A stretch of DNA of 37,138 nt from a virus (Duplodnaviria; Caudoviricetes). This document shows, one piece after another, positions 1 to 27,863 of this stretch. The stretch covers positions 1 through 37,138 of the IMG/VR virus record IMGVR_UViG_3300035703_000222; one strand, written 5' to 3'. A program made the position numbers and the translations under genes. Below the pieces are notes generated by a model. The model made no database searches. It was not told where the DNA came from and saw only the letters and a program-made list of their open reading frames with translations. Each line of letters begins with the position of its first letter. The first letter of the stretch is position 1.

Positions 1-1
1 T

Positions 2-3000
2 AACCTTCACTTCGTCTGCTCGCAAAGCTGAAAGCTCGTTTCGATACCCGCGAACAGCGCTACCCATGGATGCGAGTGTGCGTCGCTCTGCGAACCGATC
101 GCGCACGTCGTCGCGCTGCATGTACTCTGTGCCCCACAAGCTGTTCAGCTCGTTGAGCGCAGTCTCTGCAGTCTTGGCGTTCTCAAAGAACTCGGTCTGA
201 TTCTGCTTGCCAGTGTTCTGCTGATAGAAGCTGCGAAGAATCGGGATCTTGTTCTTATCAATCGCTGCATCAAGACCGATCTCTGTGGTGAGCATCACGG
301 AGTCAGCTGCGTCACGCGCAAAGCCGCCGGCACCGCCGGTCATAAAGCCGAACCAGTAGCGCAGCGTTTCAGGCGACACGTCGATGGCGCCCGAGTACGC
401 CGGCGTACCGCCAGTAGCCTCGTTCATGGCTTGAGACAGCTGTTGGAACATTGTTCCGCGAGTTGCCGTCCAGAACTTCTCGCTGTCCGGCTTGTTCGGT
501 TCGTACACCGAGTCCGGCATCAGCGGGATACCCTGCTCTGTCATGTTCGAAGCGCTGACCAAGATCGGATCGAGCAAGGTCGGTGCCGCAAACGTCGCCG
601 GGTTCTCTAGTGAACCGAACGGCGAGAAGTGGGTGAAGAAGGAGTCGCGCATGAAAGCGCCAACCTTCGCCAACGGCACCCCACGCTGCAGGTCGCTGAG
701 CGCGTAACCGATGTTCACGAAGAAGCCAGAGCCGTACGCCATCGGGATGGTGATGGTGTCTCCGTCCTCGGTGAAGAACAGCAGGTTCTTAATCTTTGCC
801 TGCTTGTATAGCTTCTTGTCCCAGTAAGGCTCGTCGTCATCCCCACTGTCGGCGGCGCCGAGTTGCGCAATCGCATAGCCCAGTGCAATCAATGAACCGC
901 CGAGCATTGCGCCAGCTTTGCCTGACTTGAAGATCAGGTTGTACGTCGCGCGGGTACCCTGAATGTTCGCGTTGGCAAACATGTAGAGCAGCCCAAGGTG
1001 TGGGGTCCACTTGCCCTTGCGATCGAAGTTCACCGTCACGTTCTTTGCGGCGTTGGTCGCGTCCTGCCGGTTTGCGCCGGCTTCGAGGCGAGCTAAGTAC
1101 GTCGCGAATCGCATGGAGGTTTCGATCGAGCCAGCGGCATCGAGCATCAGGTCTTCGACCTTGTTCACCACGCCAAGCATCTGTGTGCCGTAGGTGCGCG
1201 GATCAAGTGAGCCAGACGCCTGAGCAGCACGGAAGCGCTGCTGTATGTCTTGCTGGATGTCTTCGATTTCCTTGATGTCGAGGTAGCCGACCTTGCCGCC
1301 ATCAGCGCGGTACATGTCGTAGGCTTCCTTCAGCGTGACAGTGCGTGCAGGCTGACCCGGCTCACGGATAGTGATCGTGTCGTTGTTGCCCTGCCACGTA
1401 CCGTCTCGCTCAGCCTTCCATGCCACGCGCGCTGCTTTGTACAGACGTGCATACGCTTTGGCTGCGGTCTTCGGACCGTACTTCACCAAGTTCCAGAAGC
1501 CGCCAGTCTCGGTGTTGCGGATAGCGTCAATAAACACGAACGCCGGCGAGAGCGTGGTACGCAGCTTCGCGAGCGTCTGCATAACGCCAGACCACACGCG
1601 GAAGTACAGCTTCGCCTGATCGCCGCTGCCGATCGCGCCTGCCATTTGCAGGTCTTCGAGCATGCCCGGGTCTTTCACGCGGATGAACACGGGCTTACCC
1701 TGCACACGCACGGCGATCGTCTCGCTCGGGTCCTCGTTGACCTCGAAGGCGACACGCACGGTTCCTTGCGCGTAGCCAAGCGGGGACATGCCGCCCTTGT
1801 AGTACGAGCGCGAGACCTTCGGTGCGTTGACCTGCCACAGCTCTTGGTCCGGGTTGTCGCGGACAAACTGTAGAAGCAGTCGGTAGACCTTGTTCTTCTC
1901 GGCAAGCACGATGGCGTCCGAGTAGTCCTTCAGGATGTTCTCAAGGATCTGACCGGCGCGGGTCTCGCGACCCTTAGCTACCTTCACGAACGGGTTGCGC
2001 GGGTCGGTGCGTCCCGGCGATCCGACGCCAAGCGACTGACCAGTTGCTTCGTCAAAGTTCTCAAAGCCACGAAGCGGAACGTAGTTCGGGTTGTCCTTCT
2101 TCCACTGCGCAATGACCGCAGGCTCAACCAGTCCTTCGCTAAGCAGGACGTTCTGCGTCATCTGCGTAATGCGCTGGAACTCCCTCGCAATCTGAGCGAT
2201 CTGCGGGAAGTCACGGCGCGAACGGAAGCCGTTTACAATCTGCATTGCCTCGGCATTAGTCATACCTGAGCCGCCGTCAGTGCCGAACTGTGTCGGGTTG
2301 CGCTGCTGAATGATTGCGTTACGCTCCGGCGCGTACACGGCGTACAGATACTGAGCGACCTCGTCGAGGTTCACGCCTAGCTTCGCCGCCTTCTCAATCA
2401 GCGGGATCTCGACTTCCTTCTTGAAGCGATCGAGACGACCGCGCACTGCGCCACGCATACGCTGGCTTGCCGTAGTAACGTCTGTGTTACCAATGACATT
2501 GCCCTGCGCATCACGGATGTCGAGAGTGCCGCCCTGCTGTTCAACAGCCTGTTGCACATCTTCGACGCGCGACATGCGGTTCTCGAACAGGTTCTCGAAG
2601 TACTTCTCGCGCAGCGTGCGAGCTGGCAACGTGAAGCGCTGACCGGGGATCGGCACACGGCGAGCGAAGTTGCTGTTACGTAACGGCGTGAGCGCGCGAT
2701 TCGGTACGGAGCCGGGGTTCTTCGCGGTCGTCGGGGTGACCTTGGCAAGGCTGGGTAGCCCGCCCTTGATCTTCCCTGACAATGCAACCGCCTTACCTTT
2801 GTTGAAGTACAACAGGCTGCCGCTATTCAGTTCACGGTTGATCTCGGTCAGCGAGTTCGGCTCGTTCACCGGGTACACGCTGGCGATCTCGGACGCCTTG
2901 TCGTTTCCGTAACGCACGTCAGGGTGAACGATGGCGACCACAGGGTTGCCGTCTTTCACCATGTCCAGCACGACCTTGTAGCCGTACCGGCGCGTCATAG

Positions 3001-6000
3001 TGCCGCCTTCGCTGCGGATCACGGCGACCGGGTCGGCAATCATCTGCGGCACGGCGCGCAGCTCGTCAACGGTTAGTGCAATACGAGGAGCAGCCGGGAC
3101 AATGAGTCCAGCCGCATTACGGCGCACAGCGTCCGCGCTCGTAGACTTACCAACGAACTCTGGATTGACGACCTTGACGACCGTGCGCGGCTCGATGACG
3201 AGCAGCTGGTCGGGCGCGCCGACAGCGCGCAGTACGGAGGGGTTCTCGCTGATGCCGAAGAGTTTCGGCGCGCGAGGATCTTGGTTGGCGGCTAGCTCGA
3301 CGTCTCGTCGGCTGAATTGCCCGACTGACTCGGGCTCGGCTTTCTGACTGTCTGCGTCAGATACGTTTCCTGAGACGACTTGCCCTTGGTCGCGATCGAG
3401 GCGCGCAGCTGCTCTTTCAACTGCAACACGTATGGGTTGTCCGAACCATACTGGGCTTCCAGATCTTGTATTCGTTTCGGCAGTTGCTCGATCAATGTAC
3501 TCATCGTAGTTCTCCTTGCCGACGACGATCGTATCGTATTGGTAGGTCTTGGCAAATGCCACGCCGTCCATCGTCGACACTTCGGCGGCGATACTGTCTA
3601 GCTGGCGGGTCTTATCCTCCAGCACACGCTCAATGAATCCCTCTGTCAGCACGTCCTTGCGGAACTGCTCATCCCAGCGCATTGAGATCTCGGGGATGAA
3701 CTGCAGGCGCACACCGATGTACTGTCCGCTCTGAGCTCGCGGATCAACAGCTAGCGTAAAGCCGTCCGCGCCCTTCGACGTGAACTGCTCCAGCACAGGC
3801 ATAACAGCATCAAGCGCGCGCTGGTCTCGGAAGTAGAGCTCGACACCGGGGCGGGCGTTAGCGCTGTCTTCGTCCGGCTGCAGCACCTTGGACACGAAGA
3901 TGTCGTACTGGCTGTTTTCTTTGGAGACCTGTGCGATCTCCGCGATTGCCAGCGCCGGATTGTGTACGCCTTTTTCGACCGTCCACTCGGTGTCGAACGA
4001 CTGCTCAATAGTGTTGCCGTACAAGCCCTTGGTCGGCAGGACGCGCGCAGCGATAACGCTGCCATCTCGCTTGAGGGCGTACATCACCCGAGCCTGAGCA
4101 GAGCTAGCGGTGCCTTCCTCCGGAACCGTCTCGCCCTGCTGAACACTCCAGCCAGCGATGTAGCGCTCCATGGGCTGGCTTTCGATGTTCTCCTCGAAGC
4201 TTCCGCCCTCACCTTGCGCACTGGTCCAGCCGTTGCTCGCCCACAGTTCCTTCTCGACAAACCACGCAATGGCTTGCAGGTCAGGCGCAGTGACGTCGAT
4301 GCCTTCGTCGCGCAGGCGCTGGGCAACCTTATCCATCACGCGCGCACCAAATCCGAACTCGCCGGTAACAGCTGTTGCCTTAGTGTTCCAGTTACCCGTT
4401 ACGCCCTGCTCAGCCGGCGGCGGGATGCGGGCAAGCACGTTGTTACCCGCGGCAATGTTCGCCGCACGGCGCAGCATGCGAGCTGCCCATACGTCGATGG
4501 TTGCCATGTCGGATTGACCGATCAGGTTCAGCGCGAAGTTGCGAGCCTTCGGTGCCTGTCCCGGGTGTATCTGTCGCCACACGTTCAACAACGCCAGCAT
4601 GGCGTTGCCCGAGTTCATGCCATACAGCTTGCCGCTGATCTGGCGGATCTTGTCCTCGGACGGGTAGTCGCTCACATTGCCGCCGTCAGCGATGTAATCG
4701 GCGAACTTCTTCAGCTCAGCATTGAAGTCGCCACGCACGAACCGACGCATGACGTCGATCGAGAACACCCAGTTAGTATCGACCGGTGTGTTCGGCGAGG
4801 TGGCGCCGAGCAAGTCGGCGAGTAAGTCACCCATTCCACCAAACTCTCGGCGCAGCACTTCCGTGACGTTGCGATACCAGTTCTTGTGCGACAGGATGAC
4901 GTTGGCGTTCCGATCGCCAGCAACGGCGCGTCCATAGACGCCCTTCACTAGCTTGTAGAACTCGTCGCCAACCTTGTCCGCCCACGGCTCATTGAGTTTT
5001 TGCGGAGCGCGACCAACGCCATCGGGCACGTTGTACTTGTATGCAACGGGCGCCCAGTTGAGCTCTGCGTCGGCAGGGTCCTTATCTTTGGGAACCAACA
5101 CGCCGCGCACGAATAGCGGAGCCCAGCCCTGCGACTCAGGGAAACGGCGCTTCGTCTCGATGGCTTGCGCGATCAGGTCATCCAGTACAGCGCGCGGGAC
5201 TTTGTTCTTGATGCCATCACGCTCGATGGCTTGCTGCTCATCTGCTGAGAGATCTGCAGTCTCAGCGACAGCGCGCTCGGTGCGCTGCACCCCAAGGCGG
5301 AATCGATTCGCGGGAGTTGCTACCTGCTGTGTATTCGTAGCTGCCGGTATTGTTTCCGGCGCAACAGAAGGCGTTACCGGTTCTGCAACAGGCGCTGCAG
5401 CGGGTTGCTCGGGCTGTTCGCGAACTGCTGCCGGCGCGCCAGCAACTCCACGTCTTGACGCTGCTCGAACTGGTCGATCGTCTCGTTCTGCGGGCTGCTC
5501 TTCGACAGCTTCTCCAGAATACCGATCTGGCGCGAAGCCGATTGCGAGGTTGATTGGGTATCCATCTTCTTTGACTCTGCGGTTGAGTTCCGCATACATC
5601 TTCTCCTTCAGGTCGGCGACATTATACCGCGGTAAATCATTGATGGAGCCGTACGCCACACCATTTTTTCCGTTGTTCACGATGCGGAGAGGCACGTTGG
5701 CAAACAGCGTCAACAGCTGTCGCGCCACGTTAGATGCTCCGTCGTGAGCCTCAGCCAATACCTCGATTGGCACCGTACGACCTACGCGCTCAGCACGCTT
5801 CATGGCACGACCAAGCGAGTCCATGGCGTCCGAGTTGATGTAGTAAACCTCGGTCGGAAGTCCTGACGCGAGCGACTTGTTAATCAAAGAAGTCGCTGTA
5901 TCCAGTTTGCTAAGTGTACCGTCGTACAGAATGACGTTCGGCGATCGCAGGTTGAGCTGCTTAACCGCAAATCCCTTACCTGATCCGCCGCCGCCAGCCG

Positions 6001-8923
6001 TGAAGCGAACGATATCGCCCTGCTCCGCGTTAGTAAGGACGTAGTCGAACACCATCTTTGACAGACGTGATGCGCCTTCGTGGACATAGGCGGCATAGAC
6101 CGCAGGGTTCTCCACGTAGATCGGCGACAGCTCACGTGCGTGATCGGCATTCACCTCGCGACCAAAGCGACGCAGGTATTCATCGACCATACCCTGCGGG
6201 TCTTGATCGAGAGCCTGCTTGAATGTGTCAGACGCCAGCTTGCCGCGCTTCTGAATGTCGCGGTTGAACTGACCGCCTACGCGCTTGTAGGCGTCGGCTT
6301 CATCGGCAGGATCTGCGGCGGTCGCTGCCGGAGCATCCGTTTGCAACCGCTGTGCTGGCGCTGTTGCTGGAGCTGCGGGAGCCGCAGGAGCGTCTTGCGC
6401 AACCGGGGCAGCTGTTGGCGCAGCGGCAACAGAGGCGGTTTGCTGGGGAGCCGGGGTAGCCTCAGAGTCCTGATCTAAGAACGGGTTCCTTAGCCGCGGC
6501 TTGAGCGCATTGGCGAACGCTACTTTCTGGGCGAGCGCGGGCGGCATAGGGGCTGCCGTAGGCGCTACCTGTGCGGCAGCAGGCGCAGCGGGCTGCGCCG
6601 GGGCTGCCATGCGCTTCTGAGTCTCACGCTTCTGGTACTCAGCAAACGCAGCCGTCACCGCCTTCTGCGCTTCCACCAGCCGCGCGCGTTCTTTGATGTA
6701 TTGCGGACCTTTGATGACCGCCAACATCTTCTGCAGCACGTCGGCGAGAACGTCGCGGAAAGTCTTGGCGACCTCGGGGTTCTCGAAGCTATCGAACATC
6801 TGACCAAGGGTCTGCGGATTGCGGACAAGGTCACCCACGACGTAGGCAACGAGCTCCGAGTCGAGCTCGCGCTGGGTCATGTCACGACCGACCTCGGCAC
6901 GACGGCGCTGGTTCAGGTTGTCGATCAGCGTCTGGCGGATCGTGGCGTCCATGGCAGGAACCACAGTGTCCCGCAGAGTCTGGTAGACGTCGGCATGCCG
7001 GGTCTCCAGTACGTGGGTCAGTTCGTGCCATGTGGTGTCGAGCAAGTCGACGTCTTTGGCGCTAACAAGGATCGTGTCGCCAGAACGGTAACCACTGAAC
7101 GCACCGAGCTGTTGACCCGAGGCGGTCGACAGCTGTTCGCCAAAGTCAACGAAGTGGACCTTCACGCCGAAGGCAGATTCGAGAGCGCCCTTGAAACGGT
7201 TCAGGCGAGTATCAGTCGTGACCAACCCAAGATTCAGGGTCTCGGTTTCGTCTAAGCCGAGATCCTGTTTCATGCTAGCCACGGCAGCTGTAAAGCTATC
7301 CTCAGGCGGCTGTTCAACAGCTGTTGCCTGAGCAGCCTGTTTGGCTTCAAGGTCGGCGACAAACTGGTCTTCAGACTGAGCCAATGCCGCGTCTACAGGA
7401 TTGACTGAAGCGCTATTTTCCGGGGTATTCGGCAGGCTCAGATTTTGAGCCTGTGCCGTAGCAGGAGTCTGTTCGGGTCGATCCTGTTGAACGCCAACAG
7501 CTGTTCCCGGCGTTTGAACAGCAACGTCGCCCAACTCGCTGTCCGCAGGGCGGATATTTTCCAGCGGGTCAAGTGCAACATCGCGATTCGGGTCGAGCGC
7601 TGCCCGGACCTGTCGGTCAACGGATTCTGGATTAACCCGGGAGCCGTCGATCGCGCGCTTGAGGTAAGCGTCGAGGGCGCTTTCCGGCGTGGACTTCGCG
7701 CCACTGATAGCGCCGACCGGGGCGCCGCCCAGTGCGCCTAGCACTAAGTTGGCAGCCGAGCCTTCGCCGATTTCTTTATTCGTAATCTGCGAGCGGATGC
7801 CAACGTCAGAGGCGATACCCTCAGCGGTTTCCTGCAGACCTTCCTCGGCTGCGCCAAAGGCAGCGCCGGCGGCAGTAGCGCCAGCTCGGTTGCCACCCAC
7901 GCGGCGCAGGATGTCGTCGTAGGCGCCGTTTAGCAGCTTACCGGTAACCCGGGAGCCAAGGGCTGCCACCATGCCCTGCAGTAAAGCGCCGGTCTCTGCC
8001 GCCTTGTCCGTGACGATCTGGCGGGCTTCCTCGGTGGGCACGCCGTTACGCAACAAGGTGTTGTAGTAGGGGCTGACCTCGGTGAGCTGCTCGTCGGACA
8101 GGTTGCCGACGTACTCGCGTGCCGTGCTGGCAGCCTCTCCAGCCGCCTGCGTGCCGCCAACAGCCATTGCTGCTGTTGGGCTGCGGGTAATGACAGCTGT
8201 CGCCACAGTGGGCGCGAGCGAGCCCAGTACGCCAGCTGCTTGCAACAAGTAGCCGGACACAGTCGGATCGTCGCCAAAGCTGAACTCGCCCTTGAGGATG
8301 TTGCCGCGCGGAGTCGCGCCTTCGAGGCGCTGCTTGCCAGCCTCCGAGATGCCCGACTCGATATCGCGCTGCACCCGTGAGCCGTACTCAGCAAGCCCTT
8401 CCGCCCCGGGGATCTTCACCCCAGAAACTAGGCGGTCAAATGCGACCGCTGCTTTCTCGCGGTTCTCCGCCTGCTCGGCGTACGACATGAATCCCGTGGC
8501 GTCCATGAGCCAGTCGCTTGCCTTCTGCAGCAAAGCGCCAGCAGCCACCGGCTGAGACTCGCCCGTAATGCCGCGACGGATAGCGCCCTTGATGCCAGCC
8601 TCGGCGCCAGCGGGCATGGAGAGCGTGCCGCCAACCAATGCGCCAGTCGCCTTACGACCGGCGTCCTCGGCAAACTCGCCGGCACCGTATTCCAGTCGAC
8701 GCGATTCCTTGTCTGTCGGTATTGCCTGCGGACGCGCGAGTGGGTCTGGAGCGGGCAAAGATTTCGCCGGCTGCGTCAGGACGTCGTCATACGCTCCAAG
8801 CAATCCGCCACGCACAGACTTCTGTTCAATAACAGCTGCGCGCTCGCGGTTCTTCTCGGTCGCTTCTCCGGTTCCGGAATACGGATCTCCAGTGACATCT
8901 CGGTAGGCATTCAAAAGACCCAT
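2..8923 (-). CDS. Giant polyvalent internal virion / DNA ejection protein (>=2974 aa, 3' end beyond window), LPD38-like C-terminus
   Basis: Manual translation from ATG at 8923 (MGLLNAYRDVTGDPY...) finds no in-frame stop down to the window edge, and the ORF track omits it. Motifs: HELTH (7013-7027), AGGGGSGKG (~5972-5998), PKARNFALNLIG..TIDVWAAR (~4480-4555), MuF-C-like ..PQMIADPVAV..EIASVYP, and LPD38-type AKNVTVNFDRKG / LYMFANANIQG / IDVSPETLRYWFGFMTGGAGGF. Last gene of the ejection-protein block. Confidence 0.92.
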   Translation of the reverse strand, partial: MGLLNAYRDVTGDPYSGTGEATEKNRERAAVIEQKSVRGGLLGAYDDVLTQPAKSLPAPDPLARPQAIPTDKESRRLEYGAGEFAEDAGRKATGALVGGTLSMPAGAEAGIKGAIRRGITGESQPVAAGALLQKASDWLMDATGFMSYAEQAENREKAAVAFDRLVSGVKIPGAEGLAEYGSRVQRDIESGISEAGKQRLEGATPRGNILKGEFSFGDDPTVSGYLLQAAGVLGSLAPTVATAVITRSPTAAMAVGGTQAAGEAASTAREYVGNLSDEQLTEVSPYYNTLLRNGVPTEEARQIVTDKAAETGALLQGMVAALGSRVTGKLLNGAYDDILRRVGGNRAGATAAGAAFGAAEEGLQETAEGIASDVGIRSQITNKEIGEGSAANLVLGALGGAPVGAISGAKSTPESALDAYLKRAIDGSRVNPESVDRQVRAALDPNRDVALDPLENIRPADSELGDVAVQTPGTAVGVQQDRPEQTPATAQAQNLSLPNTPENSASVNPVDAALAQSEDQFVADLEAKQAAQATAVEQPPEDSFTAAVASMKQDLGLDETETLNLGLVTTDTRLNRFKGALESAFGVKVHFVDFGEQLSTASGQQLGAFSGYRSGDTILVSAKDVDLLDTTWHELTHVLETRHADVYQTLRDTVVPAMDATIRQTLIDNLNQRRRAEVGRDMTQRELDSELVAYVVGDLVRNPQTLGQMFDSFENPEVAKTFRDVLADVLQKMLAVIKGPQYIKERARLVEAQKAVTAAFAEYQKRETQKRMAAPAQPAAPAAAQVAPTAAPMPPALAQKVAFANALKPRLRNPFLDQDSEATPAPQQTASVAAAPTAAPVAQDAPAAPAAPATAPAQRLQTDAPAATAADPADEADAYKRVGGQFNRDIQKRGKLASDTFKQALDQDPQGMVDEYLRRFGREVNADHARELSPIYVENPAVYAAYVHEGASRLSKMVFDYVLTNAEQGDIVRFTAGGGGSGKGFAVKQLNLRSPNVILYDGTLSKLDTATSLINKSLASGLPTEVYYINSDAMDSLGRAMKRAERVGRTVPIEVLAEAHDGASNVARQLLTLFANVPLRIVNNGKNGVAYGSINDLPRYNVADLKEKMYAELNRRVKEDGYPINLAIGFAPDRYSGEAVEEQPAERDDRPVRAASRRGVAGAPAAVREQPEQPAAAPVAEPVTPSVAPETIPAATNTQQVATPANRFRLGVQRTERAVAETADLSADEQQAIERDGIKNKVPRAVLDDLIAQAIETKRRFPESQGWAPLFVRGVLVPKDKDPADAELNWAPVAYKYNVPDGVGRAPQKLNEPWADKVGDEFYKLVKGVYGRAVAGDRNANVILSHKNWYRNVTEVLRREFGGMGDLLADLLGATSPNTPVDTNWVFSIDVMRRFVRGDFNAELKKFADYIADGGNVSDYPSEDKIRQISGKLYGMNSGNAMLALLNVWRQIHPGQAPKARNFALNLIGQSDMATIDVWAARMLRRAANIAAGNNVLARIPPPAEQGVTGNWNTKATAVTGEFGFGARVMDKVAQRLRDEGIDVTAPDLQAIAWFVEKELWASNGWTSAQGEGGSFEENIESQPMERYIAGWSVQQGETVPEEGTASSAQARVMYALKRDGSVIAARVLPTKGLYGNTIEQSFDTEWTVEKGVHNPALAIAEIAQVSKENSQYDIFVSKVLQPDEDSANARPGVELYFRDQRALDAVMPVLEQFTSKGADGFTLAVDPRAQSGQYIGVRLQFIPEISMRWDEQFRKDVLTEGFIERVLEDKTRQLDSIAAEVSTMDGVAFAKTYQYDTIVVGKENYDEYIDRATAETNTRSGSPVWFGQPIRVAVERAAARLDRDQGQVVSGNVSDADSQKAEPESVGQFSRRDVELAANQDPRAPKLFGISENPSVLRAVGAPDQLLVIEPRTVVKVVNPEFVGKSTSADAVRRNAAGLIVPAAPRIALTVDELRAVPQMIADPVAVIRSEGGTMTRRYGYKVVLDMVKDGNPVVAIVHPDVRYGNDKASEIASVYPVNEPNSLTEINRELNSGSLLYFNKGKAVALSGKIKGGLPSLAKVTPTTAKNPGSVPNRALTPLRNSNFARRVPIPGQRFTLPARTLREKYFENLFENRMSRVEDVQQAVEQQGGTLDIRDAQGNVIGNTDVTTASQRMRGAVRGRLDRFKKEVEIPLIEKAAKLGVNLDEVAQYLYAVYAPERNAIIQQRNPTQFGTDGGSGMTNAEAMQIVNGFRSRRDFPQIAQIAREFQRITQMTQNVLLSEGLVEPAVIAQWKKDNPNYVPLRGFENFDEATGQSLGVGSPGRTDPRNPFVKVAKGRETRAGQILENILKDYSDAIVLAEKNKVYRLLLQFVRDNPDQELWQVNAPKVSRSYYKGGMSPLGYAQGTVRVAFEVNEDPSETIAVRVQGKPVFIRVKDPGMLEDLQMAGAIGSGDQAKLYFRVWSGVMQTLAKLRTTLSPAFVFIDAIRNTETGGFWNLVKYGPKTAAKAYARLYKAARVAWKAERDGTWQGNNDTITIREPGQPARTVTLKEAYDMYRADGGKVGYLDIKEIEDIQQDIQQRFRAAQASGSLDPRTYGTQMLGVVNKVEDLMLDAAGSIETSMRFATYLARLEAGANRQDATNAAKNVTVNFDRKGKWTPHLGLLYMFANANIQGTRATYNLIFKSGKAGAMLGGSLIALGYAIAQLGAADSGDDDEPYWDKKLYKQAKIKNLLFFTEDGDTITIPMAYGSGFFVNIGYALSDLQRGVPLAKVGAFMRDSFFTHFSPFGSLENPATFAAPTLLDPILVSASNMTEQGIPLMPDSVYEPNKPDSEKFWTATRGTMFQQLSQAMNEATGGTPAYSGAIDVSPETLRYWFGFMTGGAGGFARDAADSVMLTTEIGLDAAIDKNKIPILRSFYQQNTGKQNQTEFFENAKTAETALNELNSLWGTEYMQRDDVRDRFAERRTLASMGSAVRGYRNELSALRADEVKV
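3292..3504 (-). CDS. Nested +1-frame small protein (70 aa), candidate immunity/antitoxin
   Basis: ATG at 3504 with AAGGAG (3512-3517) 7 nt upstream; TTGCCA-16nt-TACGAT promoter upstream. MSTLIEQLPKRIQDLEAQYGSDNPYVLQLKEQLRAS... reads as a helical hairpin. Codons are genome-typical in this frame while the host frame shifts to atypical codons (AGA, CGA, ATA). Confidence 0.7.
   Translation of the reverse strand: MSTLIEQLPKRIQDLEAQYGSDNPYVLQLKEQLRASIATKGKSSQETYLTQTVRKPSPSQSGNSADETSS
3528..3555 (-). promoter_or_regulatory. Putative sigma70-type promoter inside the giant gene, driving nested ORF 3292..3504
   Basis: -35 TTGCCA (3550-3555), 16-nt spacer, -10 TACGAT (3528-3533), ending 10 nt upstream of the AAGGAG site. 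Confidence 0.5.
5374..5595 (-). CDS. Nested +1-frame small protein (73 aa), candidate antitoxin of the zeta-like kinase
   Basis: ATG at 5595 with AAGGAG (5603-5608) 7 nt upstream and a perfect TATAAT (5621-5626). Begins where the kinase domain ends. C/G-ending codons (CTG, GAG, CAG, TTC) occur in this frame. Confidence 0.62.
   Translation of the reverse strand: MRNSTAESKKMDTQSTSQSASRQIGILEKLSKSSPQNETIDQFEQRQDVELLARRQQFANSPSNPLQRLLQNR
5621..5634 (-). promoter_or_regulatory. Putative internal promoter -10 element with overlapping palindrome
   Basis: TATAAT at 5621-5626, 12 nt upstream of AAGGAG; the palindrome TACCGCGGTA (5625-5634) overlaps it. No good -35 (GCTCCA at 17-nt spacing). Confidence 0.45.
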
Positions 8924-8926
8924 GGA

Positions 8927-10171
8927 TTACTCCCCTTGCTGGGAACCGTTGGCACGGGAAAGTATCTGGTTAACCAGATCCTGTCTGTACTGTTGCCAGT
9001 AAGTAACCCCGTTGTCCTCCATGTCGAACACCTTCTGACTTGCCGCTCTGACCTCATCCCTGTTTGCGCCGGACGCTTTGAGCCGAGCAAGGTTGTCCTG
9101 CGCCGCCTTCAGCTCCGCATCGTAACGTGATCTGGCGCGCTGATTGAGGTTGGAAACCATCTCGCGCGCCGTGACGTGCGCCTTGCCGCCAGAGAAGTCT
9201 TCTTGTTCGATGAGGATGGCGCCGAACTGATGAACAAGCCCACTCGCGCCGTCATCTGGCACAGTCTCTGCTTTTCCGCTTGGACCTCTAATGGTGAAGC
9301 CAGTGGCGAGGTATTTGCCGGCATTCTTTGACTCAAGATCCGAAAGCGTACGATATGCGTCGCTATCCGCCATCCTCTTTGACGCTTTGCTGGAGTTCGT
9401 CTCTGCGTTCGTAAGAGCTGCGGTTCCCATGCGATCCTTGTAGGTACGATCCGCGGCGTTGTTCTTCAGGTCATCCCCCGCCTTAATCGCCTCACGGCTA
9501 CCCTTGATCATCGAGTCGATCTCAGGCGAGAACGCCGCAGCAAGGTGACCAATAGGTACGCGCGTCTTCGTGCCGTCTGGCTTTGTGCTGACAGCAAAGA
9601 TATTCAGGAAGCCCATCTCGTCCTGACCAGACTGAACAGACTGCAAGCCTTCAAGCTTGAACTGATCCGCAATGCGCTTAACGGCGTCCGCATCGCCACC
9701 GAAGGCGCGCTTGAAGTCGTCAGCCACGCCGTATGCCTCCACCTTGCGGCGGAAGTCGACAAGACCCTGAATCTCCTCAGGCTTGGCAAGACCGAGCTTC
9801 TGACGCAGAGCAACCGTGCGCATCTGCACACGCGAAATCGCTTCCATGCCCTGACGGCTAGACGGGTCGATCGCTTCCGTCACGAACTGCTGTGCAGGGA
9901 AGTTTCCGTCCGCATCAGGAGTCGGGATCGCACCGCTCGGCTGCGCCTGCGCCGGCTTCTTCACGAACATCTCTTCGTTGTAAATGCCCTTCACGCCGTC
10001 GAGGTATTCGCGCTCACGCCCGCGCTGCTCTTCTTGGTAACGCTGATCGGCAACCTGCCCCTTGAGCTGAATACTGGTCAGCGCAGAGCGACGATTGTTC
10101 TCCATGTCGCGCATGTTCGCGTCCGCCGCTTCGTTCAGGACGGCGCCGATCGTCTTCATAGCCTGTGCCAT
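8927..10171 (-). CDS. Internal virion / ejection protein (414 aa), function unassigned
   Basis: Long helical, charged ORF between the S74-containing ejection protein and the giant protein; TAATG coupling with the upstream gene. Confidence 0.75.
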   Translation of the reverse strand: MAQAMKTIGAVLNEAADANMRDMENNRRSALTSIQLKGQVADQRYQEEQRGREREYLDGVKGIYNEEMFVKKPAQAQPSGAIPTPDADGNFPAQQFVTEAIDPSSRQGMEAISRVQMRTVALRQKLGLAKPEEIQGLVDFRRKVEAYGVADDFKRAFGGDADAVKRIADQFKLEGLQSVQSGQDEMGFLNIFAVSTKPDGTKTRVPIGHLAAAFSPEIDSMIKGSREAIKAGDDLKNNAADRTYKDRMGTAALTNAETNSSKASKRMADSDAYRTLSDLESKNAGKYLATGFTIRGPSGKAETVPDDGASGLVHQFGAILIEQEDFSGGKAHVTAREMVSNLNQRARSRYDAELKAAQDNLARLKASGANRDEVRAASQKVFDMEDNGVTYWQQYRQDLVNQILSRANGSQQGE

Positions 10172-11466
10172 TAGGATCTCCGAATCGCTGAGTTGCGGAC
10201 GGGCTTGTGCGTTTTCTCGACGAGGTCATCGAGCGCTTCTTTGCCCACCTTACGAACCGTGTCAGCCGGCAGGATGTACTCTCCATTCGAGAGTAGGATC
10301 GGCTGACCGGTGTCGCGGTTCATTGCCTGAACGCTGTCCGAGGTGCCCGTGCCGGGACCCGTAATCTTCCCGCCCTTCTTGCTGTGGTTCTTCCCACCAC
10401 GCACAGAGCCGCCGTCAGCCATCTTCTTGCCACCCATGCGCTCAACCTTCGCATCGAGGTCCTTAATGGCTGCCATGGTGACGCCGAGGGCGTCCTGCAC
10501 GGAGATAGTGCGACCGTCGCCCATTCCGGTTTCACGCTTGAAATCTTCTGCGTAGGTGCCCACATGTTCGCGGTTGTCGCCCTTGTACTTCCAAGTCTCA
10601 ACGGGCATGTCGCGCACCGCATCGAGCGCAGAGCCGCTCTTCACCGGAGCCTTGCCTTCCTTCATGTCACGCGAGGACATGAACGAGAGACCCGCGCCAA
10701 CGAGTGAGCCAAGACCCTGCATTGCGGCGCCGCCAGCCTGTGATGCTGCGAGCTCGTTCTGGTAGCCCATGTTCATCACATTGGCGATACCCGACTGCGC
10801 ACCGAGCGCACCCTGTAGACCGCCCATGGCGCCCTGATAACCAGCGAACATCGGCGCGTTCTGCGCGTTGAACAGACCTGCGTTGCTGTTACCAACAGAA
10901 GAGCCCGTTCCAATCGCGCTGAGCTGCGTAGCAGGCAAGTTACGACCGAGGCTGATCGCGTTCATGCGCTTCGCATCGACCACCTGATCGGCAGCCATGC
11001 GGGCATTGTTCATCGCGCCTGCGCGAGTCGCCGCCGTGCCCAATGTAATCTGGTTGTTCAGGTCTGCGAACCGCGCGGCGTTCGGGTTGATGCCCATGCG
11101 AGACAAATTGCGCGCAGCGACTGAGCGCGCAGCTGCGGTAGCCTGCTCAACGTCAGAGGCGGCGCGACCGGCGTACTGATTGCGAACAGCTGTTCTGTCT
11201 TGATTCATCGCCTCCGAGACCATCTGGTCTTCGAGGGCGCGGAACTTCTGACGATCCATCTCGGCGTCGCGAGCAAGACGCATGGACATCCGCTGCCCTT
11301 CGAGATTTGCCTGCACCATCTGCTGGTAGAAAGGCATCGTCTCTTCGTAGCGGCGCTGTCCGAAACGTAACTGGTCGCGCCCAAGGGCTTCCATCTGTGA
11401 GCCGATCTGACGCATGGCGTCAGCTATCGGGCGCATATCAGGCGGCTTCGGTGCGTCACTGCACAT
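10171..11466 (-). CDS. Ejection/pilot protein (431 aa) with peptidase S74-like domain and C-terminal GPGTGTSDS domain
   Basis: Gly/Ala/Gln/Met-rich N-terminal part (MCSDAPKPPD...), then SSRDMKE..VETWKYKG..HVGTYAEDF plus coiled coil (S74-like), then GGKITGPGTGTSDSV..LSNGEYILPADTV. Confidence 0.8.
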   Translation of the reverse strand: MCSDAPKPPDMRPIADAMRQIGSQMEALGRDQLRFGQRRYEETMPFYQQMVQANLEGQRMSMRLARDAEMDRQKFRALEDQMVSEAMNQDRTAVRNQYAGRAASDVEQATAAARSVAARNLSRMGINPNAARFADLNNQITLGTAATRAGAMNNARMAADQVVDAKRMNAISLGRNLPATQLSAIGTGSSVGNSNAGLFNAQNAPMFAGYQGAMGGLQGALGAQSGIANVMNMGYQNELAASQAGGAAMQGLGSLVGAGLSFMSSRDMKEGKAPVKSGSALDAVRDMPVETWKYKGDNREHVGTYAEDFKRETGMGDGRTISVQDALGVTMAAIKDLDAKVERMGGKKMADGGSVRGGKNHSKKGGKITGPGTGTSDSVQAMNRDTGQPILLSNGEYILPADTVRKVGKEALDDLVEKTHKPVRNSAIRRS

Positions 11467-12064
11467 GGGCTTCTCCTACAAGAACCTTCGTAAGTTGATT
11501 GGCTGTGTGTTGGTACCCGAGCGCCTGCAATAGTTCACCGGCGCGATTCACCGTCTTAACGGTCACGCGGATCTCGGTGATACCGAGCGCGTTCAGGACC
11601 GTCTCGACATAGCGAATGAGCTTGATGCCAAGGCGCCCCTTGCGGTGGTCCCTGCGAATGAAGATCGTGTCTTCCTCCGCGATCCACTGCCGGGTGTGCG
11701 TTGAGCGAGTCAGGTACATCATGCAGTTGCCGACCAGTTCGTGGTCGGGTCCGCGAAGTGTGAAGAGCACGAACCGCCCTGCACGCTCCGCGTTGATCAT
11801 GTATTCGTAATCGACGTTCAGCGGCAAGCTGTGTCGATAGGATTCAGTCTCTTCCCAGTGTGCGGCATGCAGCGGCTTAATCTCGTCGACGCAATCTTCT
11901 ATGCGCTCAACGGCGAGCGAGTAACCCCAGTGTGTATCCTTTGGGATACTGTGGAGGTCGATCGGCGTAGGCTGCTCTTGCGCCGCCATGCAGAGCCCAG
12001 AGGCAAGCTCGGGCGTCAAGACGTTGCCCAAATTTCGCTGCAACGCTGCCATCAGATCATTCAC
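11456..12064 (-). CDS. GNAT-family acetyltransferase-like protein (202 aa)
   Basis: Motif-A-like IFIRRDHRKGRLGIKLI and C-terminal LLQALGY; position between tail and ejection genes as in many podoviruses. Confidence 0.8.
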   Translation of the reverse strand: MNDLMAALQRNLGNVLTPELASGLCMAAQEQPTPIDLHSIPKDTHWGYSLAVERIEDCVDEIKPLHAAHWEETESYRHSLPLNVDYEYMINAERAGRFVLFTLRGPDHELVGNCMMYLTRSTHTRQWIAEEDTIFIRRDHRKGRLGIKLIRYVETVLNALGITEIRVTVKTVNRAGELLQALGYQHTANQLTKVLVGEAHVQ

Positions 12065-18886: not shown

Positions 18887-19822
18887 TTAGTAGACGAGAA
18901 CGTGGTTTGCGTAGAACCGGGTGTTGCCGAACGTATACACGGCGCCCGGGTACACGATACGCTCGATCTTCACGATCTTCTTCGGGCTGCCGAGCTCGTT
19001 CACGACGCTGTCCCCAAGCTCGACGACCTTCGCGAGACCCATGTCCTTGTACTCAGGCACAGGGACGAGGGACGCATATCCCTTGCCGAGGATGTACAGC
19101 GGATGCTCTTCGGACGCTCGAAGCGTAGAGCCGTCCTCGAAGGTGTACTGGTACATCGGGCGATCTGTGCGGACGATGACCTCGGTCACCGGCACGGCGA
19201 CGTTGGTCTTTAGTTCCTCGCTGTACGTGAGGATGAAGTCGCCGACCTGTACCTCTCCGATCGCCCTGAGCGAGCCGTCGCCCATAAGGATCAGGGTGTC
19301 GGGCGTGAAGCAACAGAACGGGCATCCCGTGTACTCGGTCTCAAGGTAAACGCGCCAATACCTGGTGTTACTACCCGACGTCGCGTTGACCTCGAACTCA
19401 GCTATTCGATATGCATTAAACCCAGTGCCTAGGACGAAGTTCGCTGTATTGCCCGTCCCGCTGCCGGATGCAACTAGAGTGCTTCCGTCAACCTGACCGG
19501 CGCCAAATGAGCCAGCGACTCTGGTCCATGTCCATGAAGCGGACTGGGTACATGAAATGGAGACTTGCGCTGTGCCGCCAGCTTCACCAATGAAATAATC
19601 CTGAACCAAAACGCGGCTGCTGGATGACGTGCTGCCGTCAGGGCTAAACGTACCGCCTGAAGGCGGGACGCTTTTGCCATAGAAATCACTAAACCCAATC
19701 GTTCCGCTTGGGAATGTGCCGCTGGAGTGTGATGTCCCGCGATACGAGTTCAGGTCATTACCGCGACCAAACTCCGCGTTGATCTGCGACATGCTGATCT
19801 CGCCTGACGACTGAAGCGGCAT
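18887..19822 (-). CDS. Putative fibre-tip adhesin with C-terminal Hint (intein-like) domain (311 aa)
   Basis: N-terminal SG.ISMSQINAEFG..P.GTIGFSDFYGKS motif seen in small fibre-associated proteins. Hint domain from Cys171: CFTPDTLILMGDG, I.EVQVGD.I, LRASEEHPLY, VELGDSV, FYANHVLVY-stop. Confidence 0.88.
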   Translation of the reverse strand: MPLQSSGEISMSQINAEFGRGNDLNSYRGTSHSSGTFPSGTIGFSDFYGKSVPPSGGTFSPDGSTSSSSRVLVQDYFIGEAGGTAQVSISCTQSASWTWTRVAGSFGAGQVDGSTLVASGSGTGNTANFVLGTGFNAYRIAEFEVNATSGSNTRYWRVYLETEYTGCPFCCFTPDTLILMGDGSLRAIGEVQVGDFILTYSEELKTNVAVPVTEVIVRTDRPMYQYTFEDGSTLRASEEHPLYILGKGYASLVPVPEYKDMGLAKVVELGDSVVNELGSPKKIVKIERIVYPGAVYTFGNTRFYANHVLVY

Positions 19823-20533: not shown

Positions 20534-20880
20534 TGTATTTCCTCCATCTGCGCTATGCGCTCGGATATGTGTTTCTGAAAAAGCTGAATCGTGGCAGCCG
20601 GGACTCGCTCTTCGAGCCACGACAGCAGCACCGACTCGGTCACCTCTGGTGCAGGTATAAAGCTATTCGGGTCGAGGTTGCCTTTAATGACCTTCTCTCC
20701 CTCCGCCGTGTCGATCGTCCTGTCGGAGACTGTGAACGGCACAACGCCCTGACAGATCACCACGCGCCCGCTTTGGCTTGTGCCGATGTAGTCGAAGTGG
20801 ATGTGCGTCACTACGCCTGACAGTGACCCGACATTCGTCTGGTTCGTCTGTCGGATAGCAAAGTGGTAAGCGATGCTCAC
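20530..20880 (-). CDS. Fibre-associated small protein, DUF7936-like paralog 1 (116 aa)
   Basis: MSIAYHFAI..LSGVVTHIHF..FIPAPEVTESVLLSWL; GTGA overlap with the fibre gene. Confidence 0.78.
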   Translation of the reverse strand: MSIAYHFAIRQTNQTNVGSLSGVVTHIHFDYIGTSQSGRVVICQGVVPFTVSDRTIDTAEGEKVIKGNLDPNSFIPAPEVTESVLLSWLEERVPAATIQLFQKHISERIAQMEEIQ

Positions 20881-23800
20881 TGCAAAGACCTCCCGCGAAG
20901 CTCGGCGACTTCCGCATTCAGCGCAGCCACCTGTGACTTCAGCTCTTTGATTGCCTCGATGAACAGACCAGCGAAGTTGCCGTACTGCACACCGTACTCA
21001 TCGATGTCCGCCGCGTAGGTGACAACTTCAGGCAGTATCTCATTGACCTCCTGAGCGATCACGCCGATCTCGCGGCGATTCGGGTCGGTCTTTTCGTCAT
21101 CTTCACCGGGGATGCGGGTGTAGTACACGCCGCGCAGTTGCGCCACCTTATCGAGTGCGCCACCAACGGTGACAACATTCGTCTTGCGGCGAGCGTCGGA
21201 GTAAGCGACCACGTTGCCCGTCGAGTAGACACCGCCAGAAACGTACAGCCCATACGAGGACGACGTAGTCGAAGTGTTGATACCTAAGCAAGTATTGCCG
21301 ACGAGGTAATAGAAGTACCAACGACCATTCGCTTCGCGGTACACGCCTCCGTTACCGCCGGAGTCGTACATGATTCCATTGACGCTGCTATACAAATCCA
21401 ATATGCCGCCGTACGAGTTCTTACTGCCCTGAATGCATAGTTGCGTGTACGTGGACTGGTCGTTTGCGCGTACATGCAGCCCGTAGTTGTTCGGCCAGTA
21501 CAAGCCATAGACACTGTCGAGCTGAATCCAGCTACTTGGACGGAAGTAGGAGGCTCCAGAAAGCTGCAAGTGGTAGAGATAACTGGTGCTTGCCGCGTTG
21601 ACGTAATACCCCGTGTTATCAATGTCGTAGTAAATCGGCGAACGCATGTCGCTCACGGCTCGCATACTCGCGTCGAGCGAGGCTTGGAAGCTGCCGTTGA
21701 CGATGTTCATCAAGCCGTGCGACGAAAGGTTTGACGCTACGCCACCGGCGTTCGGGTGCGAGTACCAGAGTCCGTATCCGCCAGACACGCTTGTGCCATC
21801 GATTGCGCCGGTATATGCGGCCCCCATCGAGAAGACAAGCTGGTATCGGTATGAAGAGTAGCTTCCAACGATACCCGCGCCGTAGTCGCCAAATGTTAAT
21901 CTTCCGCGCAAGTAGCCCGTGTCCGAGCTTGCCGGGCGGAAGTAGTAGGAAGTGTTGGTACTGTCGTAGTACAGCGGCGCACGAATAGACGAGCCGTCAA
22001 TCAGGAAATAGTCATTCCCGACAACTCTCGCACGCCAACCACCTCCTGACCCTAGGAAGCCGATGTCGTTACTGTTGTTGACGTAAACGTATCCGCGAAT
22101 CGTTCCGTCGTGCTGGTCGCGGAAGCGAATTCCTCCGGCAGTAGCTCCCCCGTTACTCACGTTCCAGTAGTTTTGCGCGTCAGAGTAGAAGTGGTTGCCG
22201 TACGACTGGTTGTAGATGCCTGTCGCGCCGTAGTTGCGGAACCAGCCGCCGTCCACGTTGTAGACGTTACCGCATTCAATGGTGCTAAGGCGCGATGTAG
22301 ATGTTGGGTCTACGTAATACCCGGTGTTGTTGCTGTCGTAAAAGATCGGCGAACGCATTGAGCCGTACGCCTCTGTGCCAGCGTTGGCGCCACGTATAAC
22401 AAGATTTCGCGTTCCAGATAGTCCGCCGTCCCTGAATACGATGTCCTCACCGCCGGAGGTCGCAAACTGAAAATGGTTGTCGTCTGTGTCAGTCGCGTTT
22501 ATGTATCCACGGAGGCTTCCGGCGGAAGTATAAAATTCAGCCACCCCACCAGCAAAGGTTTGCGTGTTGAAGAGGCGAGACGTGCCAGCCGGATTTAAGT
22601 AGTACCCAGTGTTATCGCTGTCATAGAAAATTGGCGCACGAAGATCGACAGGCGCGGTAACTACGCCGCTCGCCTCGATAGTCAGCGCGCGGGTGGAGCC
22701 GCCAGAGCCGACGTCAATCAGCAGTCCCGCATCCGTCGACTTGATGTACGAGTAGTTGAAGTTGGTGCCGTCTGGTGGCGCGAGGAACAGCATGCGCGTT
22801 GCCGCGTTGTCCCAGATCTCGATGGTAGACCGCCACGAACCTGAGTAGCTGCCGAATGAGCCCGGGCTGCCCCCGGATGGTCCCACACGAAGCGCACGAC
22901 TTCCGGAGCCGGTCCCTGACGTTCCGACATAGATGGTGCCGGTTAAAGTGCCGCCGCTTAACGGGAGCGCGTAGCTGCCGTAGTTCCCCGAGTGAATGTA
23001 CAAGTCGCCCGACGCGCCACCTTTGCGCAGCTCGCCATTCGTCAGCAGCGTCATTCGCTGCGTCCAGTTGTTTGATAAAGCCCCGGCGATGCTGTAGTAC
23101 GTCAGACCGCCGCCAGACTCGGTGTGGACAAGCCAACCTGTATCACTGGTCGTGCTGCGGAACGTCATCGACGGGTACGCGCCGTAGATGATGAGCTGCT
23201 CGTTAAACGTGCCCGCACCCCAATCGGAATTGATGCGGAGGTCGCCGGTCAGCGCCCCTCCGGTCAACGGCAGCGCGTAGCTGCTGTAGTTGCCGCTGTG
23301 TAATACGGTTCTCCACGTGGAATACCCAAGATTGTTCTTAGTGCGAATCCACAGGTTTCCGTAGTCCGAGTTGTTGTGCCTAATATCAAACCCAAGTTGG
23401 GCGCGAATCCCGCTGCCGAACGCCAGCCCTATCACGCCGCCGTATGAAAATGGCGCGTCCCAGCTTGTGTTGGCAGAGCCGTAGCTGCTGTACGCGCCAC
23501 CAGCCTCAAGGTCTGTGCTTAGATTGGTTGATGCCCCGATGTTGCGTGGCATATCCATCGCAACAGCGGACATGGCGCGATAGTTGTTGTCGTACAGGAC
23601 ATTGCCGTACAGCGCGCCAGTCAGAGTTCCGCCGCTTAACGGGAGTGCGTAACTGCTGTAGTTGCCAGCGTGGAGGATCACGTTGCCGCTCGGACCGGTC
23701 AGCGTACCTCCCTGTGGGACGAGCTGGATGTTTGCGCCATTAAGGATCAGTGTCCCGTAGGCGCTTGTCCCACGGTTGTAAGAGATGATGTAGCTAGAAC

Positions 23801-27212: not shown

Positions 27213-27863
27213 TCAGACTCCTGTCAGGCGGACACGCAGGTCCGCGCGCGTGTGCCCACGGGAAGCGCGCTGGCGAGCGACGTTGATGCCGCTGTTAAAC
27301 GCAGCAAGTGCAAGGCTAGCCGCCGGACCATTGGTCCACGGCTTACTCGCCATACTGAGTAATCGGTATTTCGCCCCATGGGCGACCGTCTCGGCGTAGT
27401 CCTCGAACAGGACGTCCTCGATGGTTTCCGCATTTCGGGTAGGTTTTAGGGCGGCGCGTATGGTAAGCCCGTTGGCAACCGTGTCCTTAGGTATCGGGTA
27501 GATCGAGAACGTCCGCTCATCCTTCTGGATGAACATGCGCGGGTCAGAGCGCTCCTTGTCGGCGCCCGTGAACAGCGTGTTGTAGACCTCGGCGTTATGG
27601 ACATTGTCCGGCGCAGTCGGCGTCAGCTCGACATCTTTGTACCAAACGCGCATCAGCCTGCTGACCAGCTGACTAGCTGGCGGGTCGATGTCGTAATCGG
27701 TAATCCCCTTCACCACGGTGACCGGGTCAAGGTCGCGCTGAATGACCAGCGTCTTCTCGCAGAACTCGATAAGTGCCGCACGGATTGCTACGTCTGCGGT
27801 CACCTCTGGGCATCCCGGCACTTCGGGGATGACGTACTGATAGAAGTCGCTGAGCGTCGCCAT
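27213..27863 (-). CDS. Head-tail adaptor / tail tubular protein A-like (216 aa)
   Basis: VIPEVPGCP..AIRAALIEFCEKT..LKPTR..GAKYRLLSM..KPWTN; position after the capsid genes. Confidence 0.75.
   Translation of the reverse strand: MATLSDFYQYVIPEVPGCPEVTADVAIRAALIEFCEKTLVIQRDLDPVTVVKGITDYDIDPPASQLVSRLMRVWYKDVELTPTAPDNVHNAEVYNTLFTGADKERSDPRMFIQKDERTFSIYPIPKDTVANGLTIRAALKPTRNAETIEDVLFEDYAETVAHGAKYRLLSMASKPWTNGPAASLALAAFNSGINVARQRASRGHTRADLRVRLTGV

Follow-up and report, generated by a model that had tools for sequence, protein, structure and literature searches.

The stretch of DNA analysed here, positions 1 to 37,138 of the IMG/VR virus record IMGVR_UViG_3300035703_000222 (Duplodnaviria; Caudoviricetes), is referred to below as the window. 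Its minus strand carries a giant gene for a polyvalent, ejection-type protein, in which two small open reading frames (ORFs), ORF A and ORF B, are nested in the +1 frame, the former behind a zeta kinase domain and the latter behind a two-domain module with a DNA-glycosylase fold and a tandem ferredoxin-like fold. That ORF B is a translated gene appears practically certain, and ORF A is very probably a gene as well, albeit with weaker support than B. It is probable, by a fair margin over even, that both encode dedicated inhibitors of the domains preceding them, which would be made and lost with a particular timing during infection. The features concerned are as follows, with ribosome-binding sites given as Shine-Dalgarno (SD) sequences.

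2..8923, minus strand: giant gene of the polyvalent (ejection-type) protein, at least 2974 codons, stop-free and open at the window edge; last gene
5519..6232, minus strand: zeta kinase domain, ng-zeta1 subclass, host residues 898-1135, with D927, K983, R1043 and R1049
5626-5621, minus strand: TATAAT, likely internal promoter element (-10) of ORF A, 12 nt ahead of its SD; sole TATAAT on both strands of the 37-kb window
5603..5608, minus strand: AAGGAG ribosome-binding site of ORF A; an SD of four or more letters is found in 52 of 53 zeta-trailing ORFs
5595..5374, minus strand: ORF A, 73 aa, +1 to the giant frame, start at host codon 1110; candidate zeta kinase inhibitor
4193..5137, minus strand: domain with HhH-GPD DNA-glycosylase fold, DUF7178-like, host residues 1263-1577, with invariant K1459 and D1477
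3497..4168, minus strand: tandem ferredoxin-like domain, host residues 1586-1809; repeat 1 has a G-x-Y..E..Q pattern like that of S-adenosylmethionine (SAM) lyases
3528..3555, minus strand: TTGCCA-16-TACGAT, promoter-like match 10 nt ahead of the SD of ORF B, probably a chance match
3512..3517, minus strand: AAGGAG ribosome-binding site of ORF B; an SD of four or more letters is found in 59 of 72 relatives
3504..3292, minus strand: ORF B, 70 aa, +1 to the giant frame, start at host codon 1807; member of a helical-hairpin family, predicted to bind the module

The gene content of the window is that of a tailed-phage structural region (terminase, SU10-type portal and adaptors, capsid and tail genes), and the giant gene lies after the portal, capsid, adaptor and tail genes. 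Its product gives Pfam matches to Zeta_toxin, DUF7178 (weak), MuF_C and LPD38. The initial annotation had described two +1 ORFs of one common layout within this gene, and their coordinates, frames and sites were all reproduced: AAGGAG, 7 nt and ATG precede both ORFs, and the giant gene contains no minus-strand AAGGAG other than these two. The same annotation had noted atypical host codons facing the usual C/G-ending codons of the nested frames, and two measures agree on this in both zones. The G + C content at third codon positions (GC3) of the host frame is 0.41 in the zone of ORF A and 0.44 in that of ORF B, compared with 0.66-0.74 elsewhere in the giant gene, and reaches 0.84 (ORF A) and 0.70 (ORF B) in the nested frames. 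Rare codons account for 8 of 75 and 10 of 72 host codons in the two nested zones versus 75 of 2827 elsewhere, and none occurs among the 73 codons of ORF A's own frame.

As the start of each small ORF had been picked by its ATG, SD and open frame, conservation of these features in relatives is a biased measure, and a blind rule was relied on instead, which calls a nested ORF from an ATG or GTG, an SD of at least four letters and 35 open codons. Applied to two sets of 35 and 32 fully nested, non-redundant relatives, the rule fires 25 and 31 times, with 9.4 ± 2.5 and 6.9 ± 2.2 expected from synonymous resampling of the same relatives; in a control window inside the domain it fires in 7 of 35 and 4 of 32. 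The background of nested sites is 230 in 234,773 codons of 213 long host frames, or 0.049 per 50 codons. The ratio of non-synonymous to synonymous substitution rates (dN/dS) in the nested zone of B is 0.36 in the +1 frame versus 1.24 in the host frame (10 disjoint pairs of nested loci), and in the zone behind zeta the pooled values are 0.54 and 1.04 (11 pairs), with host-frame values inside the domains of 0.12 for B's module and 0.20 for zeta. The share of changes falling on host codon position 3 drops from 0.60 in the domain to 0.26 in the nested zone in one case and from 0.56 to 0.27 in the other. An open +1 frame in homologous giant genes (72/72 module loci, 53/60 zeta loci) and a nested-frame dN/dS below 1, both of which follow from the initial proposal, were thus found. 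Since the host linker frame appears unconstrained (dN/dS 1.0-1.2), it seems to be the linker that is the overprinted frame and not the small gene.

The relatives of ORF B were collected by its module: nine loci were fetched with the window's own module, and an alignment then gave 444, of which the best 80 were taken. Removal of duplicates and of loci lacking the anchor column left 73, one of which was too short, so that 72 were scored. All 72 contain a +1 ORF of at least 35 codons starting 49-79 codons past the anchor, and those of L058 and L059 are unlike B. The host frame extends at least 250 codons beyond the small gene in 16 loci and fewer in 29; in the other 27 its stop lies inside the small gene, which is there an ordinary overlapping downstream gene. 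Twenty loci were added later from genome contigs. The module is complete in 17 of them, of which 15 showed a B match in +1 (two of the 15 resembling earlier loci), the +1 frame of the remaining two being open by eye. A profile built without the window's clade gives ORF B 50.7 bits, compared with 10.3 for the best shuffle. The family profile matches 495 representatives among called proteins at E ≤ 0.001, mostly of 51-120 aa, including a few long coiled-coil repeats that are regarded as false. Ten of these proteins were looked up and none had a name beyond 'hypothetical'; Pfam likewise offers no name for either small-protein family, a word-index search with ORF B alone returned no match, and tblastn of ORF B against GenBank phages returned chance N4-like matches only. 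A second +1 ORF with an AAGGAG of its own is coupled to B by TAAATG at L003:8135 and L005:3616.

Among 62 distinct zeta loci, two were too short and 60 were scored, of which 53 show a +1 ORF in the corresponding position (52 of them with SD; 44 nested and 9 overlapping the host stop). Homologues of ORF A itself are confined to L010 and L091. The identity between the window's ORF A and that of L091 is 54%, and L091 keeps TATAAT, SD, ATG and open frame at 59% host identity. Strain variants in ORF A are too few to be informative, at four sites, none of them in its signals. Promoters of their own had been assigned to both ORFs in the initial annotation. For ORF A an internal promoter is likely, given its unique TATAAT and a strong -10 element ahead of zeta-trailing ORFs in 12 of 38 non-redundant loci versus 2.4 expected, the loci being related and hence not independent. 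For ORF B the assignment was given up: a scan found one site in bases 1-10000 with 2.1 expected, and strong -10 elements precede 9 of 50 of its relatives with 9.4 expected. Terminal zeta domains without a small ORF were seen in L151, L153, L156, L158, L159 and L094, where the kinases are possibly inactive or the partners encoded elsewhere. In L165 (6713-6835; GenBank MW202577) an unannotated 40-codon ORF, by eye like the zeta-trailing family, overlaps the stop of a gene that carries a zeta domain and bears the annotation thymidylate kinase.

Each small-protein family goes with its own domain. Of 100 matches to the B profile, 99 lie behind the module and none behind zeta, and all 62 matches to the A-family profile lie behind zeta; these counts, although partly circular, agree with the expected co-occurrence of each nested ORF with its upstream domain. 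By the same rule a nested ORF is absent behind ART-PolyVal (0/8), LPD22 (0/5) and MuF_C (0/3), together 0/16, and present behind one of two inorganic pyrophosphatase (InPase) domains and one of one GNAT domain. Nested genes of this kind therefore do not accompany all enzymatic domains, as ART-PolyVal shows. The MuF_C domain of the window itself served as a negative control.

2789..3079, minus strand: MuF_C domain, no nested ORF behind it

Binding between ORF B and the preceding module, a further expectation of the initial annotation, is supported by structure prediction. The complex scored 0.86 and the best of three controls 0.00. Of 157 solved complexes 116 attain the mark of this scale, as do 2 of 215 mismatched pairs; it applies roughly here, own alignments having been used. 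At least 87% of the contacts agree across runs, with a predicted local distance difference test score (pLDDT) of the partner of at least 81. In the model, the hairpin of B lies against module residues 503-533, and the later part of B contacts residues 84-127, 205, 289 and 292; the contacts include the invariant W87, V119, L205, A289 and W292 and lie outside the two to three codons common to both chains. It is thus highly probable, as far as such a model can tell, that B binds the module, in the prediction by clamping across both of its domains. The prediction speaks for binding and does not tell whether its effect is inhibitory or activating.

The glycosylase-fold half of the module yields a confident model (pLDDT 92.5), the structural matches of which comprise, at ranks 1-22, 20 DNA glycosylases and two queuine-salvage enzymes. 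The best is Tm1821 (Z 9.0; root-mean-square deviation (rmsd) 4.2; 185 aligned residues), and the top three Foldseek matches agree with a glycosylase fold, but at E values of only 0.26-0.6. K1459 and D1477, 18 residues apart, are invariant in 46 of 46 rows and, judged by their spacing, may correspond to K249 and D268 of hOGG1, which are 19 apart. An identity as an Ogg2 8-oxoguanine glycosylase was considered and rejected. According to the accessible part of the source, Ogg2 needs a free C-terminal lysine, the carboxyl group of which recognises 8-oxoguanine (PMC3397491); as the module domain is internal and has no free C-terminus, it cannot be an Ogg2. The tandem ferredoxin-like half, modelled at a pLDDT of only 62.5, matches the phage SAM lyase 6ZM9 at rank 9 (Z 6.2, rmsd 3.7, 115 aligned) and 7OCK at Z 4.9, with generic matches to RND porter domains scoring higher (Z 7.3-9.2). 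Counterparts of the SAM lyase residues Gly56, Glu69 and Gln104, paired by order and motif and not by superposition, are G371, E378 and Q410, each kept in 47 of 47 rows; the Tyr58 position is Y in 22 and F in 25 of the 47, and the Glu105 position is D in 32 of 47 and Y in the window. On this basis of pattern and model, a SAM-lyase-like activity has about an even chance. Sequence searches of the PDB with the module gave nothing meaningful, an Atlas search with the C-terminal domain no usable match, and tblastn of the module against GenBank phages no match.

In the sections available, phage SAM lyases are described with strictly conserved G, E and Q (Guo et al., 2021; PMC7877911), and T3 SAMase as degrading the SAM pool of the host (PMC8406200). 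As T3 SAMase drains this pool, a SAM-lyase-like domain would be an anti-restriction effector that is costly to the producing cell. Svi3-3 and T3 SAMase, as far as the accessible text of these two sources goes, share with the domain of the window, as modelled at low confidence, a ferredoxin-like fold and, by motif, G, E and Q counterparts, invariant and in the same order. They differ from it in being small trimers with a G-to-E spacing of 13, whereas here a tandem repeat inside a polyprotein has a spacing of 7, with Asp at the Glu105 position in 32 of 47 rows and Tyr in the window.

The profile of the zeta domain matches ng-zeta1 of Neisseria gonorrhoeae (6EPH/6EPG) in the PDB at E 1e-27, residues 32-268 of 6EPH being collinear over the permuted kinase domain (E 1.2e-27), and PezT at only E 0.63; tblastn of the window's domain against GenBank phages gave no match. 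Rocker et al. (2018; PMC5923241) report that ng-zeta1 causes lysis of E. coli and that Lys115, Asp56, Arg175 and Arg181 are the residues it uses; its antitoxin, a protein of 61 aa with an extended, non-globular shape, blocks it. The counterparts of Asp56, Lys115, Arg175 and Arg181, namely D927, K983, R1043 and R1049, are kept in 38, 38, 37 and 38 of 38 rows. The residues that give ng-zeta1 its specificity for UDP-N-acetylmuramic acid (UNAM) are not: Lys59 is replaced by Arg (37/38) and Asn75 by Ala in the profile consensus, so that the substrate of the zeta domain may differ. The closest solved relative, ng-epsilon1/ng-zeta1, thus resembles the arrangement of the window in its catalytic equivalents and in having a small partner, which is non-globular there. 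It differs in its plasmid two-gene operon and its C-terminal OB domain, and ORF A and its positional family have no sequence likeness to any epsilon: the profile of zeta-trailing ORFs finds no epsilon in the PDB at E up to 10, and none of 38 zeta-trailing members has a Pfam epsilon match.

A parallel in gene layout is offered by the MuF toxins of temperate phages. In the accessible text on these, a small ORF directly follows the toxin in 89.4% of 191 toxin genes (Jamet et al., 2017; PMC5576092). As with the putative toxin domains here, a virion-associated toxin domain is followed at once by a small ORF (<150 aa); there, however, the toxin is C-terminal and the small gene comes after it, whereas in the window the domains are internal, with several in one protein, and the host frame runs through the small gene. 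By analogy, the nested arrangement would work like a MuF toxin-immunity pair, minus the terminal position of the toxin. The host protein itself resembles the large polyvalent proteins of Iyer et al. (2017; PMC5512222), which, in the portion available, are giant multi-effector proteins among virion genes with LPD38, MuF_C and zeta-like kinases; zeta kinases are listed there, and neither 'overlap' nor 'glycosylase' occurs in its main text.

Evidence for the movement of whole cassettes comes from the closely related locus L010. By blastn its two flanks are 95% and 92% identical to the window, and in place of positions 5324-3341 it has a paralogous module. Two nested ORFs accompany this module, the second of them ending in the tail of B. 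Both module alleles coexist in the run X1, at depths of 63 and 71.

3342..5323, no strand assigned: exchangeable cassette with both module domains and most of ORF B; in close relatives a paralogous module with two other nested ORFs

Besides full nesting, a terminal layout with 3' overlap, in which the small gene follows much as it does in MuF toxins and the host stop lies inside it, occurs in 27 of 72 module relatives and 9 of 53 zeta relatives. In a quick tree of 47 modules the overlap forms cluster (two changes), as one clade under a midpoint root. In a separate exchange further downstream, P0005-P0007 are 98-99% identical to the window at zeta and only 67-69% identical over the C-terminal third (window 2-1800).

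Taken together, these observations suggest the following course of events. As part of the structural operon, the giant gene would be expressed late and its product packaged for ejection, with internal ribosome sites on the same mRNA supplying A and B alongside it. In the producing cell, A and B would keep the zeta kinase and the glycosylase/SAM-lyase-like module inactive, of which the kinase would otherwise drain cell-wall sugar precursors and the module damage DNA or deplete SAM. When the protein threads out of the virion the inhibitors would stay behind, leaving the domains active in the new host, where A might be re-made early from its own -10 element to turn the kinase off. As the giant frame reads the small genes as unconstrained linkers, domain-plus-inhibitor cassettes could be swapped in the middle of the polyprotein with protection kept. 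The initial proposal of toxin-plus-immunity cassettes maintained by overprinting is upheld in its nested genes, domain pairing, cassette movement and predicted B binding, and needs revision in the promoter of B and in that the overprinted frame is the linker of the host. In its most general form the idea describes proteins of this kind as chains of toxin-immunity cassettes, in which every toxic domain has its own +1 inhibitor gene behind it, linkers are off-frame readings, cassettes are exchanged as wholes and ejection arms the effectors. A nested gene would then tell which uncharacterised domains are toxins, among them a new effector of glycosylase/SAM-lyase-like type whose small partner would be the first inhibitor protein of this sort. 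We regard this general form as evenly balanced between true and false.

Alternatively, the small proteins might be cognate folding or packaging chaperones or activating subunits instead of inhibitors. A predicted B that bridges both domains and makes its contacts without the putative catalytic residues would suit such a role, and pairing and binding alone do not tell the direction of the effect. Yet the structural and delivery domains LPD22 and MuF_C have no nested genes, the layout fits toxin-immunity pairs and the closest solved relative of the zeta domain requires an antitoxin, which makes this alternative unlikely. A somewhat different idea retains inhibition and shifts it to the time after infection, with A and B switching off injected domains or excluding kin phages that carry the same domains. 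The unique TATAAT of A and the extended -10 enriched in relatives (12/38 versus 2.4) point in this direction, as do two module alleles in one run, which would be expected of kin-recognition systems. However, B and most relatives have no conserved promoter and would therefore be made only with the late giant mRNA, so that a mainly post-infection role appears quite unlikely.

It is also conceivable that only B is functional and that the window's A is a passenger, either decaying or of recent origin, in which nothing but the signals persists; A shows neither homology to other zeta-trailing ORFs nor a purifying signal against L091. This is very unlikely in view of the TATAAT, SD, ATG and open frame that L091 keeps despite its host divergence, the high GC3 of the nested frame and its freedom from rare codons. 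Finally, ribosomes might shift into the +1 frames, which would then encode alternative C-termini for shorter forms of the giant protein, and both frames indeed open where a domain ends, so that a product truncated there would be folded. What is conserved, however, is an SD followed at a fixed distance by a start codon, and the relatives are called as free proteins of 51-120 aa, so that frameshifting is extremely improbable.

Several results weigh against A and B being dedicated inhibitors that travel with their domains. The pairing counts are partly circular in that loci were fetched by their domains and the profiles built from those loci. The putative catalytic residues K197/D215 and the G371/E378/Q410 pattern are absent from the listed contacts of B, because of which a blocking of the active site is not evident, and the enzyme activities of the module are themselves read from folds. 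The rule used finds no +1 ORF in 7 of the 60 zeta loci, one of which has a small ORF at the host stop instead. ORF A scores -1.0 bits against the profile of the other zeta-trailing ORFs, with 461 of 500 shuffles as high, and relative to L091 its changes are spread evenly over the three codon positions (20/22/21), with 5 synonymous and 31 non-synonymous codons. To these are added the unremarkable -10 count ahead of B relatives given above and the history of nesting: that a downstream gene came first and was nested later finds no support in the quick tree, the root of which is unreliable.

Same-strand nested genes with a ribosome site of their own are represented by lambda Rz1 in Rz and phiX174 E in D. 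Rz1 partners the product of its host gene, and both Rz1 and E are single fixed lysis genes; unlike these, each exchangeable effector domain here brings its own nested gene. Toxin-like domains in the middle of a chain leave no place for an ordinary downstream immunity gene, and nested partners would offer an answer to how the producer survives. If the inhibitor reading is true, a nested gene could serve as a marker of which uncharacterised domains are toxins. Fully nested partner genes are moreover a class overlooked by gene callers, and the locus supplies candidate inhibitors for a zeta kinase and for a glycosylase/SAM-lyase-like module as well as a rare same-strand overlap in which selection is measurable in both frames and intermediate states are present. 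Its contribution lies in the pairing of one gene with one domain, in the predicted binding, in the intermediate layouts and in the cassette swap. No literature on nested partner genes in polyvalent proteins or on producer survival was found, subscription papers and supplements being outside the coverage.

Further nested +1 ORFs were seen in the related loci. A conserved one with a QQPNLDQD motif (family C) lies behind a second, paralogous glycosylase-like clade in 10 of 10 distinct loci (L010, host ORF 1379-8779; L091, L099, L101, L108, L111, L113, L115, L123 and L125). Another (family D) follows a ferredoxin-like domain with a G-x-Y and Q-D pattern in 6 of 6 (L010:7113, L108:6152, L112:6140, L118:6119, L115:594 and L123:520), with a variant in L103 and L110. 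Two more conserved families, of about 144 aa and 68 aa, stand behind other domains (L117:1964, L120:1250, L122:1418 and L124:1949; L108:1697, L111:959 and L112:959), and single nested +1 ORFs occur behind a GNAT domain (L004:5639) and behind an inorganic pyrophosphatase domain (L020). Longer nested proteins in L012, L017 and L029 and in L001, L013, L108 and L110 have common C-terminal add-ons on different families, like extra fused small modules.

Elsewhere in the giant protein, the N-terminal part (window 7322-8254) is similar at E 6e-15 to a PHROG comprising virion RNA polymerases, which fits an ejection protein, and an HExxH motif at window 6980-7040 (host residues about 630-645), which we take to be metallopeptidase-like, has no SD-led nested ORF behind it. 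The other genes of the virion region include those for a Hint-domain protein (18887-19822), a standalone GNAT (11456-12064) and two Peptidase_S74 proteins (10171-11466 and 20877-24902), as well as two tandem SU10 adaptor genes (27213-28561).

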